NCBI GenBank assembly: GCA_963782795.1
Contig: CAWALB010000006.1
Span: 34,808 to 98,807 of the forward strand
Direction of reading: 5' to 3'
Source of the DNA: an uncultured Actinomycetes bacterium
Lineage (GTDB): Bacteria; Actinomycetota; Thermoleophilia; Solirubrobacterales; 70-9
Length of the DNA: 64,000 nucleotides
Shown here: positions 4,590-37,119 of the stretch, in pieces
Numbering within the stretch: the first letter of the stretch is position 1
Layout: each line of letters starts with the position of its first letter
The notes under the pieces: model-generated
The model's database searches: none
What the model was told of the DNA's origin: nothing
The model's input: the letters and a program-made list of their open reading frames with translations, nothing else
Translations under genes and position numbers: made by a program

Positions 4590-5630
4590 ATGCTTCGCTA
4601 CATAGTTCGCCGCGTGCTCTGGGGCATCGCGATGCTCTTCATCGTCAGCGCGGTGGTCTTCATGATCTTCAACGTCTTTCCCTCGGCGGATCCGGCGAAG
4701 CTCCGAGCCGGCCGTAACGCCTCACCGGACACCATCCAGGCGATCCGCAAGGAGCTCGACTTGAACGAGCCCATCTACGTTCAATACAAGAACTTCATGT
4801 TCGGCCAGGATTCGTATGTCCACCTCCAGACCAGCTTCCCCTTCGTCGACGTCTACCTGCACGGCGACGCAAACGGTGGAGTCTTCACTCCTCAGTTCAG
4901 CCTCGGCCAGAGCTACTACTCGCAGGAGCCGGTGAAGACGATCATCTTCGACCGGCTCCCCGCCACCGCTCTGTTGGTGGCGGGGGCTGTGGTCTTCTGG
5001 CTCCTGATGGGGATCCCGATCGGGATCATCTCGGCGATCAAGCGAAGATCGCTCCTCGACCGCACGACTATGGTGACCTCGCTGGCGTTCATCTCGGCGC
5101 CGGTCTTCTGGCTCGGACTGGTGGCGCTGTATCTGTTCGCGCAGGACGTCGGGCTAATTCACATCTTCCCCGGCATCGGCAGCTACCTGTCTGCCACCAC
5201 CTTCTTGGAGAAATGCTGGTCGCTGTTCCTCCCCTGGCTCGTGCTTGCGGCCGCGAGCGCCGCGATCTACGCCCGCTATCTGCGGTCGAGCATGATCGAC
5301 GTGATGTCCGAGGACTACATCCGCACGGCCCGGGCGAAGGGGGTGTCGGAGGGGAGCGTGATCATGCGCCACGGGGTCCGCAGCGCGATCACGCCGATCG
5401 TCACCCTCCTCGGCCTCGACATCGGGCTGCTCCTGGCTGGAAACGCCATTCTCACGGAGTCCGTCTTCAACATTCCCGGCATCGGGAGGCAGATCGTGAC
5501 GTCGATCAGGACGTCCGACCTGCCCGTGATCCAGGGAATCGTCCTCTTCGGCGCGTTCTTCATCATCACATGCAACCTGATCGTGGACATCGCCTACGCG
5601 TACCTCGACCCGCGGGTTCGGTACGAGTGA
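4590..5630 (+). CDS. peptide-type ABC transporter permease (DppB/OppB-like)
   Basis: 346-aa ORF starting MLRYIVRRVLWGIAMLF and ending [10 protein letters not shown], the classic DppB/OppB termini. Confidence 0.9.
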   Translation: MLRYIVRRVLWGIAMLFIVSAVVFMIFNVFPSADPAKLRAGRNASPDTIQAIRKELDLNEPIYVQYKNFMFGQDSYVHLQTSFPFVDVYLHGDANGGVFTPQFSLGQSYYSQEPVKTIIFDRLPATALLVAGAVVFWLLMGIPIGIISAIKRRSLLDRTTMVTSLAFISAPVFWLGLVALYLFAQDVGLIHIFPGIGSYLSATTFLEKCWSLFLPWLVLAAASAAIYARYLRSSMIDVMSEDYIRTARAKGVSEGSVIMRHGVRSAITPIVTLLGLDIGLLLAGNAILTESVFNIPGIGRQIVTSIRTSDLPVIQGIVLFGAFFIITCNLIVDIAYAYLDPRVRYE

Positions 5631-25910: not shown

Positions 25911-26474
25911 TCAGAGCGCGCCCTTGTGGCGCTTGACGTGCGACTGGGTCTTCTCCCAGCCCATGCCCTGCGCCCAGCCCGGACCGGCGCCCTTGGTGTC
26001 CGCGGTGTCGAACCGCAGGCCCGCGATCGTCATGAAGGCGTGGCTCGGGTTGGCGTAGACCGTGATCCACGCGCCCTTCCTGGCCTTGCCCCATGTCTTC
26101 AGGCCGCTCGGCGGCTTGGCGTGCTTGATCAGGTGCCCGCCGTGGAGGGCGTAGCTGACGGAGCTGGAGCAGTCGTAGCAGGGGGACTGCCAGCTCGAGT
26201 AGCCGCCACCGCTGCAGTAGCCCTTGCCCTTGGCGATGTCGTTGGCGGCCGCGATGACCTGCTTCACGCGGCGCGGCGCCGACTTCGGGGCGACCGCCTT
26301 GCCGTGGACGAGCTTGGCCTTATGGCCCTTGACCGTCGGCGACGGGTCGGTCGTTCCGGTGCCACCGCTGTTTGCCATGGCGGACGGGCTCGCGAGGACG
26401 AACGCGCCGATGCACGCAGCGGACACGGCGGCCGCTACTCGTGGGCGTCGGATGCGAAAACGGTTGGGGAGCAT
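25911..26474 (-). CDS. secreted NlpC/P60-like (C40) putative cell-wall hydrolase
   Basis: AAGGAGA SD 7 nt before the ATG. Signal peptide (RPRVAAAVSAACIGAFVLASPSAMA). YDCSSSVSYAL nucleophile-like motif and a downstream HAFMTIAG. The track ORF extends upstream across the riboswitch and was trimmed. Confidence 0.55.
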   Translation of the reverse strand: MLPNRFRIRRPRVAAAVSAACIGAFVLASPSAMANSGGTGTTDPSPTVKGHKAKLVHGKAVAPKSAPRRVKQVIAAANDIAKGKGYCSGGGYSSWQSPCYDCSSSVSYALHGGHLIKHAKPPSGLKTWGKARKGAWITVYANPSHAFMTIAGLRFDTADTKGAGPGWAQGMGWEKTQSHVKRHKGAL

Positions 26475-26489
26475 GAATCGGTCTCCTTC

Positions 26490-26615
26490 GTCGGCCTGCG
26501 GGGTTAGCTGACGGGCTGGCGCTAAAGGAGCCTGCGCCCCCGCCCGAGTCGGGCGAGTTAGCCCCGGAAGTGGATCCCCCGCTCCTCGCCGCTGGTGGCG
26601 AGGACTCGGCTTGTT
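26490..26615 (-). promoter_or_regulatory. c-di-AMP riboswitch (ydaO/yuaA class), copy 2
   Basis: The minus strand reads GCCGAGUCC-hairpin-AGCGGGGGAUCC...GGGGGCGCAGG...AGCCCGUCAGCUAACCCCGCAGGCC, then GAC, GAAGGAGA and 7 nt to the AUG. It matches the remembered B. subtilis ydaO blocks (GCGGGGGACCCA; CCCGUCAGCUAACCUCGUAAGC) and copy 1 at 35236..35376. Confidence 0.7.
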
Positions 26616-26928
26616 CCAGTGCTCGAGCGAGCAGGGTAGCGAACGTGCTCGTCGGAGGTTGCGGTTGCCACGCCGGCCATTACAGGCCTCATACCGGTTT
26701 CGGCCCCTACTAGCGAACAGGGCTCTCCGACGCTTGTCCTGTCGGAGGGGCCACGCCCCCAGAGCAATCACTCAGGAGAGCCAAATGTCTCGCATCGAGT
26801 TCTCAGGCACGCGAAGCCAGTACCACCGAACGACCTAACGATGCGAGGCGTTCACCACATGCTCTAGTGCATCATCGCGGCGGCGGGGCCAGCCCTCGCC
26901 GCGGCGATGTTGGTTCCACGCAGACCCG

Positions 26929-31314: not shown

Positions 31315-32820
31315 GTGCCGGGGTACGATCGCGTCGTGGCGAGGGCGGAACCAGGTCCGGCGGAACCCGCCTTCGTGGTCGTGAACACGGTCGGTCCGCA
31401 GATGACCTCGGCCGTCGCGAGCGCGGTCCGCGAAGCGGCGACGGCCTACGGGCTTTCGGCTGATGGGGCCAACGAGCTCAGGGAGGCATGCGAAGCACTG
31501 CTTCTCCGCATCGCCCGGAGCCCCGACGACCCGGAGGCCGGCCATTTCGAGGTCACGGTCAGCCACCGTCCGGGCCGGGTCGTGGTCCAGATCGACGACC
31601 ACGGAGTGCCGTACGAGCTGGCCGACGACGCGGCAAGCGACCCGCAGGCGGCTATCCACGTGCCGGCACAGCTGCTCGACTTCATGCACGAACGGGTCGA
31701 TCGGATGGATTACCTCTACCGGGGGCGCGAGGGCAACCGCATCGAGTTGACGAAGCGGATCGCCCGAGGCGAGACGAGCAGTGAGGAGCCGGTCCACCCG
31801 CAGGACATCGATCCCGACCAGCCCGTGGAGGTGCGGCCGATGGTCGCGGCCGACTCGATCCCCTTCGTTCGCAACGTCTACCGATCGTTCGGCTACACGT
31901 ATTCGGGCGAATGGGCGTACCACGCCGAGGCGGTCACTCAGCAGCTCGAGTCGGGAATCCTGAACGCATGGGTCGCGGCGACTGCTGACGGGGCGGTCGT
32001 CGGACACGCCGCCATCGAGCGCGACCCTCCCGGCGCAAGGCTCGGTGAGGGTGGGGCGGCCGTCGTCGATCCCGCGTTTCGCCACCACGGCATCTCGGTC
32101 AAGCTCGGGCTCGCGGCACTCGAGTGGACCCAGCAGCAGGAGCTGGTCGGCCTCTTTGCGTACGCGACCACCCGTCACGCCCAGAGCCAGAAGACGTGCC
32201 TCGATCTGGGCGGCAGCGAGCTCGGGCTGCTCTTGGGATACATCCCGGCGCGGGTGAGGTATCGAAGCGTCGGCGAGGCCGACGAGAGCAGCGGGGTGCT
32301 GGTCATGTACCTCGGGCTCCGCCCGGACCCCGACCACGAGGTCCACGCCCCGCCGCAGCATCGCGAGATGCTGCGGCGCATCTACGAGGGCTGCAAGCTG
32401 AACGGCAACTTCGTGGACGGCGAAAGTCCCGATCCGAGTGGACCGACTCGAGTGGACGTCGCGGTCGAGGCCGAGCGCACACTCGCCCGGCTCGATGTGA
32501 CTCGAATCGGCTCAGACCTCACCAAGGCGATGCGCCTTCAGCTGGAGCGGCTCGAGCGCGCCGCCATCACAACCGCCTACATCGATCTCCCGCTCTCGCG
32601 GCCCGAGACTCCATCCGCATGCGACGAACTCGAGCGGCTCGGCTTCTTCTTCGCCGGCGTGTTCCCTTCCGCGGAGGACACGGGCTGGCGGCTGCGGCTG
32701 CAGCACCTCGACGCCCACACGGAGGTCCAGCGCGACGACATCGAGGTCGCGTCAGAGTTAGCCGCCGACCTCCGCGACTACGTGTTGGCGCGTGCTGCCG
32801 CAGGGGAGAAAGGAGCCTGA
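31315..32820 (+). CDS. RsbW-like HATPase domain fused to a GNAT N-acetyltransferase
   Basis: The N-terminal ~140 aa resemble anti-sigma kinases (FVVVNTVGPQMTSAVASAVREAA...EACEALLLRI...VVVQIDDHGVPY). The central GNAT core is VGHAAIERD...AAVVDPAFRHHGISVKLG. GTG start, 21 nt after the tRNA. Confidence 0.65.
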   Translation: MPGYDRVVARAEPGPAEPAFVVVNTVGPQMTSAVASAVREAATAYGLSADGANELREACEALLLRIARSPDDPEAGHFEVTVSHRPGRVVVQIDDHGVPYELADDAASDPQAAIHVPAQLLDFMHERVDRMDYLYRGREGNRIELTKRIARGETSSEEPVHPQDIDPDQPVEVRPMVAADSIPFVRNVYRSFGYTYSGEWAYHAEAVTQQLESGILNAWVAATADGAVVGHAAIERDPPGARLGEGGAAVVDPAFRHHGISVKLGLAALEWTQQQELVGLFAYATTRHAQSQKTCLDLGGSELGLLLGYIPARVRYRSVGEADESSGVLVMYLGLRPDPDHEVHAPPQHREMLRRIYEGCKLNGNFVDGESPDPSGPTRVDVAVEAERTLARLDVTRIGSDLTKAMRLQLERLERAAITTAYIDLPLSRPETPSACDELERLGFFFAGVFPSAEDTGWRLRLQHLDAHTEVQRDDIEVASELAADLRDYVLARAAAGEKGA

Positions 32821-32822
32821 AC

Positions 32823-33179
32823 ATGACGGCGCTGCTCGTAGCAGCCGGTGGAGCACTCGGCGTACTGTCGCGATACGGAATCTCGCGCTTGACCCTCCAT
32901 TCGGAGGCCCTGATCTGGTCGACGGTGGGGATCAACATCGTCGGATCGTTCCTCCTCGGCCTGCTGGTTGCGGAGCACTGGTTCTCGCGCGACCTGCGAG
33001 AGGCCATCGGCGTCGGGTTCCTAGGTGGGTTCACGACGTTCTCGACCTTCTCCGTACAGGTGGTGCTCGACACGGACGCCGGCGAGCCGGGCAAGGCGCT
33101 CGTTTACGTGGTCGTGTCCGTGATCGGAGGGATCGCCGCGGCGGCCGCCGGCTACACGCTCGGCCGGCGCCTCGCATAG
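32823..33179 (+). CDS. crcB: fluoride ion channel CrcB
   Basis: 118 aa, GGALGVLSRY and GFLGGFTTFSTFS motifs. ATG is 2 nt after the upstream stop. Confidence 0.9.
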   Translation: MTALLVAAGGALGVLSRYGISRLTLHSEALIWSTVGINIVGSFLLGLLVAEHWFSRDLREAIGVGFLGGFTTFSTFSVQVVLDTDAGEPGKALVYVVVSVIGGIAAAAAGYTLGRRLA

Positions 33180-33190
33180 GACCGAGCGCT

Positions 33191-35131
33191 CTAGCCCCGG
33201 AGCTTCACCGTCATCACCGAGTGCGCCGGGACCTTCAGCTTCATCGTGCGGCCGTTGACCCACCGCTTGCTGGTCCGGATCGAAACGCGGCCCGGGTGGT
33301 GATAGCTGTTGTACGAGAGGTAGCTCGGCCCCACCAGTTCCTTGACGACCGCCGAGTGCATCGGCTTGCCCCGGACCGCGATCGTGGCCGGCACTCGCCA
33401 GCTACGCGACTTGTTCACGATAGTCACGTAGAGCGCTCCGTTGGGCGCCTTGGTGGCGAGCGCGCTCAGCATCTTCAGGTCCTTGCCCGTGTAGATGTGG
33501 CGTGACGGATTTCTATGGACGGCGGTGCGGACGACCTCGTCGCCCGCGGTGGGGGTCAGGAGGCGGAAGGCGCGGGCCGTGGCGGTCATGATGTACCTGG
33601 GCCTGGGCCCGATCAGGGCCTGCTCGGGCGGGCCGAGGGATGTGGCTCCGTGGGGGGCGTTCTTGTTGCGGTAGTACATGAGAGCCTGCTTGGCCGCGAG
33701 CGGGACGCCCAACTCCATCCATCGCTGCAACTCGAGCGCGCTGTAGACCGCCTGATCCATCGAGCCGAGGTAGTTCTTCGTCGGGCCCAGGCGATGGCCA
33801 AACGACATGCCCCACTCGGAGACGACGATGCCGACCGACTTGCCGTTGCTGCCGGCGTGGCGCTTGATCGCGTGCCGGAGCGCGATCACCTCGTTCGCGC
33901 GCTTGCCCGCGATCGCCATGATGCCGTCGTGGAACTGCTTCACCCCGTGAGGGTGCTTGTGCGGCATATGGCTGTAGAGGTGCTTGACGACGAAGTCGTA
34001 GGGATGCTTGGTGCCCATCATCGAGAGGAAGTGCCCGTTCCAGAAGCAGCTTCCGACCTGGATCGTGGGATCGGCGGCCTTCATCGCGCGGTAGTAGTCG
34101 ACGAAGCCGTCGTGGGGTCCTGACGTGTAGCTCACCCGCACCACGCTGCCCTCCGTCGGGATCTTGCCGTGCACGCCGTCGCCGAACGCGATCTTCCCGG
34201 TCGCCGGGTCGAGCGCATACACCTTGTCGTTCGCGGACGCTTGGGAGAGGTCATCGACCCGCTGCCAGCCGTCATCGTCGACGGTGACCTGGAAAGGCTT
34301 GTCCGGTCGCACCGGTGGGTAGATGACTTGGAATCGTTGACCGGCCGACCCGTCGCTCACGGCGGCCGATCCCTGATGATCCGACGGCGTACCGACTCGC
34401 TGGTCCTTGAATTTCGTGGAGCCGCCGAATACGTACTTCTTGGTCCGCTTGGCGAGCGAGCCGCCGCCCATCCAGTGGGACTGGCCCGGCTCGTAGAGCT
34501 CGTTGCCGATCTCCCAGTTCTGGACGTGGTAAGGCTCCGGGTGCCCGTTCGCGGCGCGCACGCTCGCCCACGCCACTCCGCCGTTCGGATTTGTCCCCAC
34601 GGGAGCGTTCATGTACTCCACCCAGTCGGCAGCCTCCTGCGCGGTTCCGGTGGCGAAGTTCGCGAGCATCATCGCCTGAAGGCCCTGAGTGCTGACGAAG
34701 GAGCCGAACTCGTCCGGTCCGAAGCCGTTTGCCAGCGGCTCGCCCGTGTGCCCGTGCACGTTGAACCCGCGCTGCGAGAGTGGGCCGATGGCCCGCTTCC
34801 AGTGATAGGTGTTGGCGACCGAGCCCCCCGGGAAGCGCATCGCGGTGAAGCCGGCAGCCGAGAAGCGGTGTTCGAAGCGCGGGTACACGTTGTCGATCGA
34901 GGGGTCCCACATGCCGAACCCGTCGTACGGATAGCGGTGGTTCACGCCGAACAGCCCGGGGTGAACCGTCCGCAGGCCGTCACCGGGATGGACCAAGATC
35001 TGAGCCCTCTGCCCGCCGGCTGACGACGCCGGCGAGATCGCGAAGGCACAAAGCGCGACGAGCAGCGCTCCGAGGGCGGCGATCGACCGCCGTCCCGCGA
35101 TCGTCCTCTGTGCGGCGTCCTTACCCTGCAT
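33191..35131 (-). CDS. secreted clan GH-A glycoside hydrolase (alpha-L-arabinofuranosidase-like)
   Basis: Signal peptide (IAALGALLVALCAFAISPASSA). MRFPGGSVANTYHWKRAIGP and NWEIGNELY motifs. The exact GH family is not determinable by eye. Confidence 0.7.
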   Translation of the reverse strand: MQGKDAAQRTIAGRRSIAALGALLVALCAFAISPASSAGGQRAQILVHPGDGLRTVHPGLFGVNHRYPYDGFGMWDPSIDNVYPRFEHRFSAAGFTAMRFPGGSVANTYHWKRAIGPLSQRGFNVHGHTGEPLANGFGPDEFGSFVSTQGLQAMMLANFATGTAQEAADWVEYMNAPVGTNPNGGVAWASVRAANGHPEPYHVQNWEIGNELYEPGQSHWMGGGSLAKRTKKYVFGGSTKFKDQRVGTPSDHQGSAAVSDGSAGQRFQVIYPPVRPDKPFQVTVDDDGWQRVDDLSQASANDKVYALDPATGKIAFGDGVHGKIPTEGSVVRVSYTSGPHDGFVDYYRAMKAADPTIQVGSCFWNGHFLSMMGTKHPYDFVVKHLYSHMPHKHPHGVKQFHDGIMAIAGKRANEVIALRHAIKRHAGSNGKSVGIVVSEWGMSFGHRLGPTKNYLGSMDQAVYSALELQRWMELGVPLAAKQALMYYRNKNAPHGATSLGPPEQALIGPRPRYIMTATARAFRLLTPTAGDEVVRTAVHRNPSRHIYTGKDLKMLSALATKAPNGALYVTIVNKSRSWRVPATIAVRGKPMHSAVVKELVGPSYLSYNSYHHPGRVSIRTSKRWVNGRTMKLKVPAHSVMTVKLRG

Positions 35132-35235
35132 GCCCGAGCATGGGCGACCCTACAACCTCACCCGCCCCGGCGCGAACGTGTCGAAAGGCACGATGCATGA
35201 CGTCAGCGCGACTGGTTAGGGTGCCCGGCGAAGAG

Positions 35236-35376
35236 AACACTGCCGAATCCCTTCGTCCCAGACGGAGGGAGCGGGGGAACCGAAGGGGGCCCGATAAGGG
35301 TCCGGGGGCGAATCGGAACTGACTCCGTAGCGCCGCTCTTTCAGCGCGAGCCCGACAGCTAACCCCGTAGGCCTGA
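35236..35376 (+). promoter_or_regulatory. c-di-AMP riboswitch (ydaO/yuaA class), copy 1
   Basis: GCCGAAUCC-hairpin-AGCGGGGGAACC...GGGGGCGAAUCGG...AGCCCGACAGCUAACCCCGUAGGCC, then UGA, GAAGGAGA (35377..35384) and 8 nt to AUG 35393. Block-by-block alignable with copy 2. Confidence 0.75.
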
Positions 35377-35392
35377 GAAGGAGAGGTTCTCG

Positions 35393-35539
35393 ATGACAGA
35401 GCGAATGCTCAGTCTGTTCGAGCCACGCGGGGTCGGTCGAAGCGCTGAGATCGCCGGCTGGGTAGCCGGCGGCCTCGTGGGATCGATCGTCGCTGTCGCG
35501 GCGCTGCTCGTACTGCTGGGCGCTCACATCGGGGCGTAG
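35393..35539 (+). CDS. 48-aa single-pass membrane micro-protein downstream of the c-di-AMP riboswitch
   Basis: MTERMLSLFEPRGVGRSAEIAGWVAGGLVGSIVAVAALLVLLGAHIGA. Consensus SD at the same spacing as in copy 2. Below the track cutoff, translated by hand. Confidence 0.5.
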   Translation: MTERMLSLFEPRGVGRSAEIAGWVAGGLVGSIVAVAALLVLLGAHIGA

Positions 35540-35541
35540 TC

Positions 35542-35565
35542 GTCGCGGCCCACCAGGGCCGCGAC
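35542..35565 (+). terminator. 9-bp GC hairpin directly after the micro-protein stop
   Basis: GTCGCGGCC-CACCAG-GGCCGCGAC begins 3 nt after the TAG. No U-tract follows. Confidence 0.35.
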
Positions 35566-35742
35566 CCGCGACCCCGCTCTCGCCGCGTGTCCCCCCTCGC
35601 GGCGATCGAGGGCCAGGGACGGCCCCTGTCTGAAAGGCGGCGACCTTGTCGCCGCAGCAGCATGCAAGGCGGCGTAGCCGCCGCAAGTGATTCTGGGAGG
35701 AGCGAGCCGTCGCAATTGCTCGGGTGGCGGTAGGAATAGGTA

Positions 35743-37119
35743 ATGGACCTCCCCCGCTCGAACGATCCCGGGCTCCTCGACCCGGCCGGCGTCGCGCTCC
35801 TGGTCGACCTCTACGAGCTCACGATGTCGGCCGGCTATCTCGCGCGGGGGCTGAACCACGAGGCGGTGTTCGAGCTCTTCCCTCGCCGTTTGCCGCTGCG
35901 GCGAGACTGGCTCCTGGCCGCCGGGCTCGGGCCGACGCTGGAGCTCCTTCGCGCGCTCCGCTACGGCGAGGAGGAGCTTGCGTATCTGCGCTCGCTCGGG
36001 CCGTTCGACGAGGAGTTCCTGGACTATCTCGCCGGCTTCCGGTTCACCGGTGACGTCGAGGCGATTCCGGAGGGAACGGTGACGTTCGCCAACGAGCCGC
36101 TCCTTCGCGTCACGGCGCCTCTGATCGAGGCCCAGCTGATCGAGACGGTCCTGCTCAACCAGATCAACTTCCAGACCATGATCGCCACCAAAGCGGCCCG
36201 CATCGTCCTCGCCGCGGGCGGGGGCGAACCGGGCAAGGGAGATCGCGTCCTCGACTTCTCCCCGCGCCGCGACCACGGCGTTGACGCCGCGATGAAGGTG
36301 GCGCGATCCGCGGCCGTCGCCGGGTGCGGCGGCACCTCGAACGTGGCGGCCGCGATGCGCTACGGGTTGCGGCCGGTCGGGACGATGGCTCACTCCTACG
36401 TGCTCGCCTTCGACAGCGAGGAGGAGGCATTCCGCTCCTTCATCCGGAGCTTCCCCAGGGGGCCGGTGCTGCTGGTCGATACCTACGACACCCTCCAGGG
36501 GGTACGCAACGCGATCGCCGCCTCACGTGACGCGGGCGTCGGGCTCGCGGGAATCCGGCTCGACTCGGGCGACCTGCTCACCCTCTCCCGGGCCGCGCGC
36601 GAGCTGCTGGACGAGGCCGGAATGAAGGGCACCAGCATCGCCGCGAGCGGAGACCTGCACGAGGGGCGGATAGGCGACCTGGTTGCGGCGCGCGCCCCGA
36701 TCGATCTCTGGGGGGTGGGCACGGACCTCGGCACCAGCCGCGACTCTCCGGTGGTGAACGGCGTCTACAAGCTCGTCGCAACCCGGCGCGACGGCGAGTG
36801 GCACGGCGTGTGGAAGCGGTCGGCCGACAAGGCCACCGTGCCCGGCACCAAGCAGGTCTTCAGGGCCTCGTCAGGTAGAACGATCACCGGCGACGTCATC
36901 GGCGCCGACGACGAGGACCTGGAAGGCGAGCCGCTGCTGCGCCCCGCAATGCGCGGCGGCGAGGCCATCGGCTCCGAGTCGCTGGAGCAGATCCGCGAGC
37001 GCGCGGCGGCCCAGCTCGCGTCCCTTCCGGAGGAGCTGCGGCGGCCGGGGGGCGATGGGGCCGCCGCGTACCCGGTGCGCTACTCGGACCGGCTCAGGGC
37101 GGCCATACGGCCGGCCTAG
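35743..37119 (+). CDS. pncB: nicotinate phosphoribosyltransferase
   Basis: 458 aa, LVDLYELTMSAGY N-terminal motif, NAPRTase-like body. Confidence 0.9.
   Translation: MDLPRSNDPGLLDPAGVALLVDLYELTMSAGYLARGLNHEAVFELFPRRLPLRRDWLLAAGLGPTLELLRALRYGEEELAYLRSLGPFDEEFLDYLAGFRFTGDVEAIPEGTVTFANEPLLRVTAPLIEAQLIETVLLNQINFQTMIATKAARIVLAAGGGEPGKGDRVLDFSPRRDHGVDAAMKVARSAAVAGCGGTSNVAAAMRYGLRPVGTMAHSYVLAFDSEEEAFRSFIRSFPRGPVLLVDTYDTLQGVRNAIAASRDAGVGLAGIRLDSGDLLTLSRAARELLDEAGMKGTSIAASGDLHEGRIGDLVAARAPIDLWGVGTDLGTSRDSPVVNGVYKLVATRRDGEWHGVWKRSADKATVPGTKQVFRASSGRTITGDVIGADDEDLEGEPLLRPAMRGGEAIGSESLEQIRERAAAQLASLPEELRRPGGDGAAAYPVRYSDRLRAAIRPA

Follow-up and report, generated by a model that had tools for sequence, protein, structure and literature searches.

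The window analysed here is a 64,000-nucleotide (nt) stretch of contig CAWALB010000006.1 from an uncultured Actinomycetes bacterium (assembly GCA_963782795.1), with a G+C content of 68.6%. On its forward strand, a riboswitch for cyclic diadenosine monophosphate (c-di-AMP) forms the 5′ leader of a small same-strand gene, the micro-open reading frame (micro-ORF), which encodes a predicted membrane protein of 48 residues. The riboswitch aptamer belongs to the ydaO/yuaA class and occupies positions 35231–35388 at full length (RF00379, model positions 1–134 of 134). In the Rfam scan with the covariance model, it scores 82.4 bits against a gathering score of 38, with an E-value (E) of 1.2e-17. This match bears out the ydaO-class call of an earlier sequence-only reading of the window, which had set the aptamer start at 35236; the model begins ~5 nt earlier. 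The ydaO/yuaA blocks quoted in that reading (GCCGAAUCC...AGCGGGGGAACC, GGGGGCGAAUCGG and AGCCCGACAGCUAACCCCGUAGGCC) are all read directly in the sequence, as is the arrangement that it gave for the translation start. A GGCC that ends at 35373 is followed by TGA, the Shine-Dalgarno (SD) sequence GAAGGAGA at 35377–35384, an 8-nt spacer and the ATG start codon at 35393. The end of the aptamer model lies 4 nt before this ATG. Translation of 35393–35539 on the forward strand yields the 48-residue peptide MTERMLSLFEPRGVGRSAEIAGWVAGGLVGSIVAVAALLVLLGAHIGA, exactly as quoted.

A −10-like promoter hexamer, TAGGGT (pattern TAGNNT), is located on the forward strand at 35217–35222, ~8 nt upstream of the aptamer 5′ end. 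The hexamer was identified by alignment, and each of the 17 inspected loci has such a TAGNNT at one and the same distance from the aptamer start; a promoter scan with the sigma-70 consensus found none. TANNNT is the actinobacterial −10 consensus, and TAGGGT is on this basis the putative −10 element of the leader's promoter. An imperfect palindrome, GTGTCGAAAGGCAC, is also observed at 35178–35191, ~26–39 nt upstream of the hexamer, and is conserved as GTGNCGAAAGNCAC in the close clade. A transcription factor of the divergent promoter region may bind there.

Overlap of the aptamer pseudoknot with the Shine-Dalgarno sequence

The pseudoknot of the aptamer is formed between the hairpin loop CUCUUUC (35336–35342), its 5′ strand, and GAAGGAG (35377–35383), its 3′ strand, which is at the same time part of the SD sequence. 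In the window, the two strands form six Watson-Crick pairs and one G-U pair. In most relatives, the tract is GAAAGAG, and all seven pairs are kept, every one of them Watson-Crick. Across 17 sequences, 115 of 115 cells are paired, compared with 58–84% when the partner strand is slid. One compensatory change is observed, CUCCUU/AAGGAG, in a second c-di-AMP riboswitch of the window (26478–26621, reverse strand). The crystallised ydaO construct 4QLM has the equivalent segments ACUCCUUC and GAAGGAG, according to the sequence quoted in PMC5393176, where the pseudoknot of this construct is characterised as a stable one with many base pairs. Minimum-free-energy folding of the entire leader was uninformative because the key helix is a pseudoknot.

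A search with a T-run rule found no terminator-like site between positions 35000 and 35900. Since the aptamer ends 4 nt before the ATG and no such site was found, the leader offers no platform for premature termination of the Bacillus kind. The ribosome-binding site doubles as a structural strand of the fold with bound ligand, and c-di-AMP would therefore be expected to conceal the SD sequence and stop translation. The arrangement of the leader predicts a translational OFF switch, with ligand stabilisation of the SD-containing helix taken over from the crystal structures. The characterised RF00379 members are all OFF switches (PMC9960051, PMC10117811), and c-di-AMP falls under K+ limitation, which de-represses riboswitch targets (PMC6488665). 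Since the known members are OFF switches and c-di-AMP is low under K+ limitation, the micro-protein is predicted to be made at low c-di-AMP.

The micro-protein family and its recurrence behind the riboswitch

Homologues of the micro-protein are of nearly constant length. A first search returned 12 homologues, all of exactly 48 residues and 73–94% identity. A profile search of 1.84 billion cluster representatives gave seven clusters at the 50% level (all 46–48 residues), and a second profile search gave 142 clusters at the 90% level (all 46–50 residues) down to ~40% identity. In an alignment of 139 distinct homologous sequences of 46–50 residues, L6, G30 and A34 are invariant, and R4, L5, P11, W23, G26, L38 and L41 are nearly so. 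Across relatives, the start codon varies among ATG, GTG and TTG, always at the same position. Over all pairs, the mean proportion of nonsynonymous differences (pN) is 0.22 and that of synonymous differences (pS) is 0.39; the Nei-Gojobori (NG86) ratio of nonsynonymous to synonymous rates (dN/dS) relative to the window ranges from 0.16 to 0.72. The G+C content by codon position (0.77/0.52/0.75) has the same shape as that of the next gene, pncB (0.73/0.50/0.91). With 46–50 residues kept in 139 sequences and pN below pS, the ORF is conserved in frame and length where the leader is, and the opposite outcome had been named in the sequence-only reading as one that would refute its proposal. The homologues are annotated as 'hypothetical protein' at their source. 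They occur in many metagenomes from soil and in metagenome-assembled genomes (MAGs) whose labels read Solirubrobacterales or 'uncultured Actinomycetes'. Among genome loci, the closest is L009 (loci are designated by L numbers), a near relative that encodes an identical peptide in DNA that is 88–95% identical to the window.

The micro-protein falls outside the described families that were searched. No Pfam or NCBIfam family matches it at E<=0.1, and Pfam at E<=10 gives only chance-level hits (DUF4006, E 1.7; syndecan, E 0.55). A profile search of the PDB likewise returned only chance matches, with nothing below E 0.13, and the profile matches to the syndecan-2 and APP helices (E 0.26–0.65) are at chance level. 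Judged from its homologues and from selection, the micro-ORF is a real, conserved and uncharacterised gene for a predicted single-pass membrane protein.

A single transmembrane helix, as read earlier from the peptide, agrees with both hydropathy and structure prediction. The codons for the helix (residues ~20–44) occupy 35450–35524 on the forward strand, as placed by hydropathy, alignment and AlphaFold. The Kyte-Doolittle maximum over 19 residues is 2.62 at residues 24–42. AlphaFold2, run with a 38-sequence alignment, predicts a helix at residues 2–8, a loop and a helix at residues 16–47, with a mean predicted local distance difference test score of 82.7 that rises to 95–98 in the membrane core. 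Two modules are conserved: an N-terminal R-L-L-x-L-x-[E/D]-P motif and a stripe of residues at every fourth position, G22-G26-G30-A34-L38, on one face of the helix. The tail on the C-terminal side of the helix contains 4–6 residues. Because so few residues follow the helix, the ~20 N-terminal residues should face the cytoplasm. The product would be a tail-anchored single-pass protein whose cytoplasmic segment of ~20 residues carries the RLLxLxEP motif.

The micro-protein recurs behind the riboswitch when loci are collected from either side. Starting from the peptide, a full-length RF00379 aptamer was found by the Rfam scan directly upstream in 19 of 20 loci, where it ends 4–5 nt before the start codon, and the peptide's recurrence behind ydaO-class switches in relatives, which the sequence-only reading had proposed to look for, is thereby seen. 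The orthologous RF00379 matches in 18 related loci score 73–86 bits. Starting from the riboswitch, metagenome contigs were searched for a pattern of the 3′ aptamer and pseudoknot, CAGCTAACCCCGNNGGCNNGAGAARGAG; more than 120 places were found, 80 were fetched, and the first ORF after the pattern was taken without a gene caller. These 80 comprise 11 further members of the micro-protein family, nine members of a second micro-protein type and one 49-residue ORF of like build, and the rest are mostly secreted proteins with signal peptides. A full RF00379 aptamer is present in 20 of 20 scanned micro-protein loci from the riboswitch side (20 of 21, with L103 left out), and likewise in L072. A conserved protein of 104–109 residues (MSQQAEARSWWADVEHLRD...) without an obvious signal peptide was also observed as the first ORF after the riboswitch in L047, L052, L053 and L055.

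The second micro-protein type (L031, L037, L043, L061, L091, L094, L097, L099 and L109) consists of 42–44 residues, MSTLIDHLATDRIRGGRLVLAYSIGAVFGIALALVALLAAGTG, and is under purifying selection with a pN of 0.14 and a pS of 0.41. It aligns in register with the first type at W23/Y22, G26/G25, G30/G29 and A34/A33, and the two have [W/Y]xxGxxxGxxxA in common. Two 49-residue proteins, from L030 and L068, are intermediate between the types. At five of the nine second-type loci, a convergent gene lies 2–38 nt after the stop codon; from a DDNGWWG motif, we take this gene to be GH76 glycoside hydrolase-like.

The second riboswitch of the window (RF00379, 58.1 bits) precedes an ORF of 187 residues, which starts near 26470 and ends at 25911. 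The N-terminus of the 187-residue protein resembles a signal peptide, its YDCSSS motif recalls NlpC/P60 peptidases, and no Pfam match was found even at E<=10. As a secreted protein, it is the usual kind of actinobacterial riboswitch target.

Downstream genes and alternative explanations

The stop codon of the micro-ORF is followed by a GC hairpin with an ACCA loop at 35542–35565 on the forward strand, in which 35542–35551 pair with 35556–35565. The sequence-only reading had placed this hairpin correctly, starting at the third base after the stop codon, and had given it 9 base pairs (bp) where 10 are present. The hairpin has a folding energy of −23.1 kcal/mol (z = −5.3), none of 200 dinucleotide shuffles is as stable, and there is no T-run. 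Most close relatives also have a post-stop hairpin, which differs in its stem sequence and folds less strongly (z −0.5 to −4.2). In the window, the hairpin is a candidate terminator or 3′ stabiliser without a U-tract. A conserved GC-rich block of roughly 65 nt that is nearly invariant in 12 relatives follows at 35568–35630 on the same strand and contains two hairpins, CGCCGCG...CGCGGCG at 35582–35605 and GGGCC-AGGGAC-GGCCC at 35610–35625. Part of the block (CGCCGCGCG...CGCGCGG) also precedes pncB in L088 and L025. In the spacer between the micro-ORF and pncB, a search for known RNAs with Rfam at E<=10 gave only noise, and RNAalifold found no covariation. A riboswitch for oxidised nicotinamide adenine dinucleotide (NAD+) had been suspected in this spacer and received no support from either Rfam or RNAalifold. 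The block could be a terminator pair, an operator of pncB or an uncharacterised RNA.

The next gene, pncB (35743–37119, forward strand), encodes nicotinate phosphoribosyltransferase. It matches NCBIfam NF006696 (538 bits; cut-off 503) and Pfam NAPRTase_N (7.7e-33), and its ATG lies 203 nt after the micro-ORF stop codon, in line with the ~200 nt read earlier. TAGGAAT (35731–35737), 12 nt before the pncB ATG, is part of the conserved GGTAGGAATAGG (35729–35740, forward strand), which occurs 12–15 nt before the pncB start wherever pncB directly follows the micro-ORF. Read against the TANNNT consensus, TAGGAAT suggests either a −10 element of pncB's own, with a leaderless or near-leaderless mRNA, or an SD sequence of pncB. 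In the window's clade, the gene order is a divergent glycosidase gene, the riboswitch with the micro-ORF, pncB, a convergent tadA-like deaminase gene, an S8 peptidase gene and a Usp gene. The divergent upstream gene of the window (33191–35131) resembles an arabinofuranosidase-type glycosidase (Pfam/NCBIfam).

In six distinct relatives that are distant from the window, a convergent gene that belongs to the TMEM175 family of K+ channels (PF06736, E 5.6e-26) lies 0–43 nt from the micro-ORF stop codon (L022–24, L027, L028, L029, L070 and L090). In L022, the micro-ORF and TMEM175 have overlapping stop codons, which share one CTAG palindrome (5144–5147). In these relatives, pncB is located beyond the channel gene, and in L027 it is absent. 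CATAGCCTT or CATAGGCTT, a TAGNNT hexamer, replaces GGTAGGAATAGG at the same distance from pncB in four of the five TMEM175 loci inspected (L022, L028, L070 and L090), and one or the other likewise precedes pncB in L040, which has no TMEM175 match. This hexamer pattern is the one found ahead of the aptamer in all leaders, which fits a promoter of pncB's own. With a convergent gene directly at the stop codon, the leader can serve no gene but the micro-ORF in these relatives. That the switch serves only the micro-protein, as the sequence-only reading had suggested, is strongly supported in these relatives by the gene arrangement, well supported across the family and probable in the window itself, where pncB lies on the same strand after the hairpin. 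No TMEM175 gene was detected by tblastn in the window's 64 kilobases, the 203-nt spacer included, and none was found in the fetched loci of the window's clade.

We regard as probable, with reasonable confidence, that the riboswitch gates a stand-alone micro-protein as a translational OFF switch and that the product is a helix-packing membrane protein. Aptamer membership, the overlap of the pseudoknot with the SD sequence, the conservation of the gene and the stand-alone arrangement in relatives are directly supported. We infer the OFF logic, the translation, the membrane topology, the partner and the physiology as follows. A short mRNA would start from the TAGGGT −10 promoter and carry the complete c-di-AMP aptamer at its 5′ end. 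With c-di-AMP bound, the pseudoknotted fold would be locked, the SD sequence hidden and translation off; when c-di-AMP is low, as under K+ limitation in other bacteria, the tract would be free and the 48-residue protein made. The micro-ORF would be the dedicated output of the switch and pncB a separate unit. The glycine-zipper face of the protein (GxxxGxxxGxxxA) would be a helix-packing surface through which it oligomerises or docks onto a larger membrane protein, putatively one of K+/osmotic or envelope homeostasis. Because the small-residue stripe would be a packing surface and the cytoplasmic motif is conserved, a small regulatory or accessory subunit of a larger membrane protein is the favoured role, by analogy with known small membrane proteins; an effector role is a hypothesis drawn from the sequence.

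Several observations weigh against the riboswitch-gated, stand-alone micro-protein. The pseudoknot helix barely varies, so that covariation is thin, and 48 of 500 shuffles reach the observed values. L029 keeps a 46-residue ORF and the SD tract without an RF00379 match even at E<=1, the 5′ half of its aptamer having decayed; the region at 4830–5000 of L029 could be a decayed riboswitch or a long-read assembly error. For the micro-ORF, dN/dS is as high as 0.6–0.7 in some pairs. By hhalign, the two micro-protein types are only weakly linked (probability 59%, E 9.5e-5). The share of roughly one quarter that micro-proteins take in the scan from the riboswitch side is biased, because the leader studied here supplied the search pattern, and is no estimate for the whole riboswitch class; as far as the collected loci go, the pairing of riboswitch and micro-protein is recurrent and not a local accident. 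Every sequence derives from uncultured MAGs and metagenomes, so far of Solirubrobacterales-like bacteria only. Finally, pncB lies on the same strand in the window and is the gene that follows on that strand in nearly every family member, and the intervening hairpin lacks a U-tract and is weak in several relatives.

These last features would suit an operon of micro-ORF and pncB headed by the riboswitch, in which c-di-AMP also tunes NAD salvage and the micro-protein is an accessory or by-product. The two genes, 203 nt apart in the window, are separated by 48–264 nt in relatives without TMEM175, and pncB is a conserved same-strand neighbour in almost all family members. However, a convergent gene of ~700 nt, TMEM175, intervenes between them in the six distinct relatives, and pncB is absent from L027. 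Moreover, pncB has a conserved TAG-containing element 12–15 nt ahead of its start in either arrangement, as a promoter of its own or a leaderless mRNA would require, and the divergent 49-residue members and the 42–44-residue type have no pncB nearby. The platform is also translational, and in Corynebacterium glutamicum only the first gene is affected (PMC9960051). The operon is unlikely in view of this gene arrangement, some read-through control of pncB is of low probability, and pncB is probably a separate unit.

A second alternative assigns the main output to the RNA itself. The riboswitch transcript would be antisense to the convergent TMEM175 gene and silence the channel at low c-di-AMP, and the window's lineage would have lost the channel and kept a remnant. 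Listeria and Clostridium provide known cases of antisense RNAs under riboswitch control. With the stop codons of the micro-ORF and TMEM175 either overlapping in CTAG or at most 43 nt apart, the two transcripts must overlap at their 3′ ends. TMEM175 is furthermore a K+ channel family, and c-di-AMP governs K+ homeostasis (PMC6488665). An antisense-only role, however, requires no conservation of amino-acid sequence, length or start position, all of which are conserved, and the ORF is intact in many lineages without TMEM175, the window included. The platform acts on the SD sequence and not on elongation, and the second micro-protein type faces unrelated convergent genes (the GH76-like ones). This explanation is very unlikely.

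The TMEM175 gene also provides the only partner candidate from the data for the preferred riboswitch-gated protein. Its adjacency to the micro-ORF recurs in the six distinct relatives, but the region is syntenic and the adjacency may simply be inherited, and a full-text literature search found nothing that links TMEM175 to c-di-AMP. A TMEM175-type K+ channel as the partner of the micro-protein is an unlikely proposal. A broader and similarly unlikely scheme would treat the 42–50-residue glycine-zipper micro-proteins as an RNA-gated c-di-AMP output of soil Thermoleophilia. Made only at low c-di-AMP, they would open or close a K+ pathway through docking onto the TMEM175-type channel that many genomes encode tail-to-tail with them or through a pore of their own, and in those genomes the same transcript might silence the channel by antisense.

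Pore formation leads to a third alternative, in which the micro-protein acts by itself as a pore former or toxin, in the manner of a holin or a type I toxin, and permeabilises or depolarises the membrane when c-di-AMP falls. The protein is small, single-pass and tail-anchored, its expression would be tightly gated at the SD sequence, and glycine-zipper helices are typical of pore-forming peptides. A holin-like function would also fit the other actinobacterial targets, which are wall hydrolases (PMC8079986, PMC10117811), but the hydrolase-like targets observed here carry signal peptides and need no holin. Neither an antitoxin RNA nor a partner gene was seen, the conservation of the cytoplasmic RLLxLxEP motif points to a specific contact with a protein, and the Pfam, NCBIfam and PDB sequence libraries gave no match, the phage (PHROGs) and defence (PADLOC) libraries lying outside this search. 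A pore former or toxin is highly improbable.

Least credible, and only remotely probable, is a non-functional ORF, whether a chance ORF of the kind that high-GC DNA produces at length (ORFs of 84 and 156 residues overlap on the other strand) or a leader peptide for which translation alone matters, given that 46–50 codons are kept in 139 distinct sequences with position-specific conservation and an i+4 stripe, that pN is below pS in two families, that G+C by codon position is gene-like and that the ORF persists in L029, where the aptamer decayed.

Two further differences among the loci concern neighbouring genes. A fluoride riboswitch (RF01734, ~50 bits) is located before crcB in L009 (3309–3412) and L012 (3137–3198). 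In the window, ~104 nt that include this riboswitch are missing at ~32790–32825, the upstream gene ends 2 nt before the crcB ATG, crcB ends at 33179, and no RF01734 match was found before crcB even at E<=1. Two other small hydrophobic ORFs, of 46–48 residues (MPLALLLIIIGIVLAILVNYALG...) and 55–58 residues (MRFPSIFTIIYVAIGVIVASNHHYF...), adjoin a nucleoside deoxyribosyltransferase-like gene in relatives (L001 739–906; L003 1303–1449 and 1494–1661; L025 63–426; L029 2634–2999). Both are unrelated to the 48-residue micro-protein.

Significance and comparison with known systems

c-di-AMP, an essential second messenger, is known to act on transporters, on the regulators of transporters and on wall hydrolases. 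If the proposed reading is true, conserved single-helix membrane proteins that form the sole gene behind a riboswitch would be a new kind of c-di-AMP output. They would be a clear case of a riboswitch that is dedicated to a micro-protein, and they would give a functional clue for small proteins that are called 'hypothetical' or missed by annotation pipelines. The leader is a compact natural case in which the pseudoknot strand of the aptamer is the ribosome-binding site, and the proposed translational mechanism is directly testable. The recurring tail-to-tail pairing with TMEM175 offers a concrete hypothesis on the role of these K+ channels in bacteria. If the TMEM175 proposal were true, the micro-protein would be the first physiological regulator of bacterial TMEM175 channels and a new class of c-di-AMP effector.

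The described targets of the riboswitch class are K+ and amino-acid transporters, osmoprotection genes and wall hydrolases (PMC7266159, PMC9960051, PMC8079986, PMC10117811), and 'almost all' actinobacterial targets are related to the cell wall (PMC9960051, PMC8079986). No description of a stand-alone micro-protein as the target of a c-di-AMP riboswitch was found in the full-text literature, with the gene-association tables of Nelson 2013 and Block 2010 outside the scope of the search and a passing mention possible. This agrees with the sequence-only reading, to which no such target was known, and the nearest case is kdpF, the first gene of kdpFABC (PMC6488665). The comparison points to the micro-protein as a target type of a known riboswitch class for which no description was found. 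The RNA is an ordinary RF00379 member with a platform that resembles the nlpC case, and the newness lies in the target.

The nlpC riboswitch of C. glutamicum belongs to the same RF00379 class in an actinobacterium, has no terminator after the aptamer and is proposed to place the SD sequence in a pseudoknot, much as in the window. At nlpC, a CUCC element would hide the GGAG of the ribosome-binding site in the pseudoknot, and the mRNA is unchanged while only the translation of the first cistron is affected (PMC9960051). The targets differ, as nlpC encodes an NlpC/P60 wall peptidase that heads a seven-gene operon, whereas the window encodes a stand-alone 48-residue membrane protein known from sequence alone. 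The leaders of B. subtilis ydaO/kimA and yuaA/ktrA and of Streptomyces rpfA share the aptamer family and the OFF logic with the micro-ORF leader (PMC9960051, PMC10117811). In contrast to the micro-ORF leader, they act by premature transcription termination, and their targets are K+ transporters or secreted wall hydrolases.

The kdpFABC riboswitch of B. thuringiensis resembles the window in that the first ORF behind it encodes a small single-pass membrane protein, the accessory KdpF, which is expressed when c-di-AMP falls under K+ limitation (PMC6488665). However, kdpF is co-transcribed with the kdpABC pump genes and is controlled by an intrinsic terminator that precedes it at a distance of 143 nt (PMC6488665). 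The micro-ORF, unlike kdpF, has no transporter genes downstream, its platform is translational, and its product belongs to no Pfam family at the threshold given above. Membership in the KdpF family finds no Pfam or NCBIfam match, and the downstream gene is pncB or TMEM175 and never kdpA.

KdpF, AcrZ, MgtS, MgtR and SgrT are single-helix proteins of 30–50 residues that are induced by stress and act by binding a larger membrane protein. The proposed mode of action of the micro-protein is similar, but it has no sequence relationship to these proteins, which are under the control of transcription factors or small RNAs and are not the sole output of a riboswitch. As in glycine-zipper and GxxxG motifs, the micro-protein carries small residues at positions i, i+4, i+8 and i+12 on one helix face. 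This likeness is one of motif and not of homology, and it is equally compatible with a homo-oligomer, with partner binding and with a pore.

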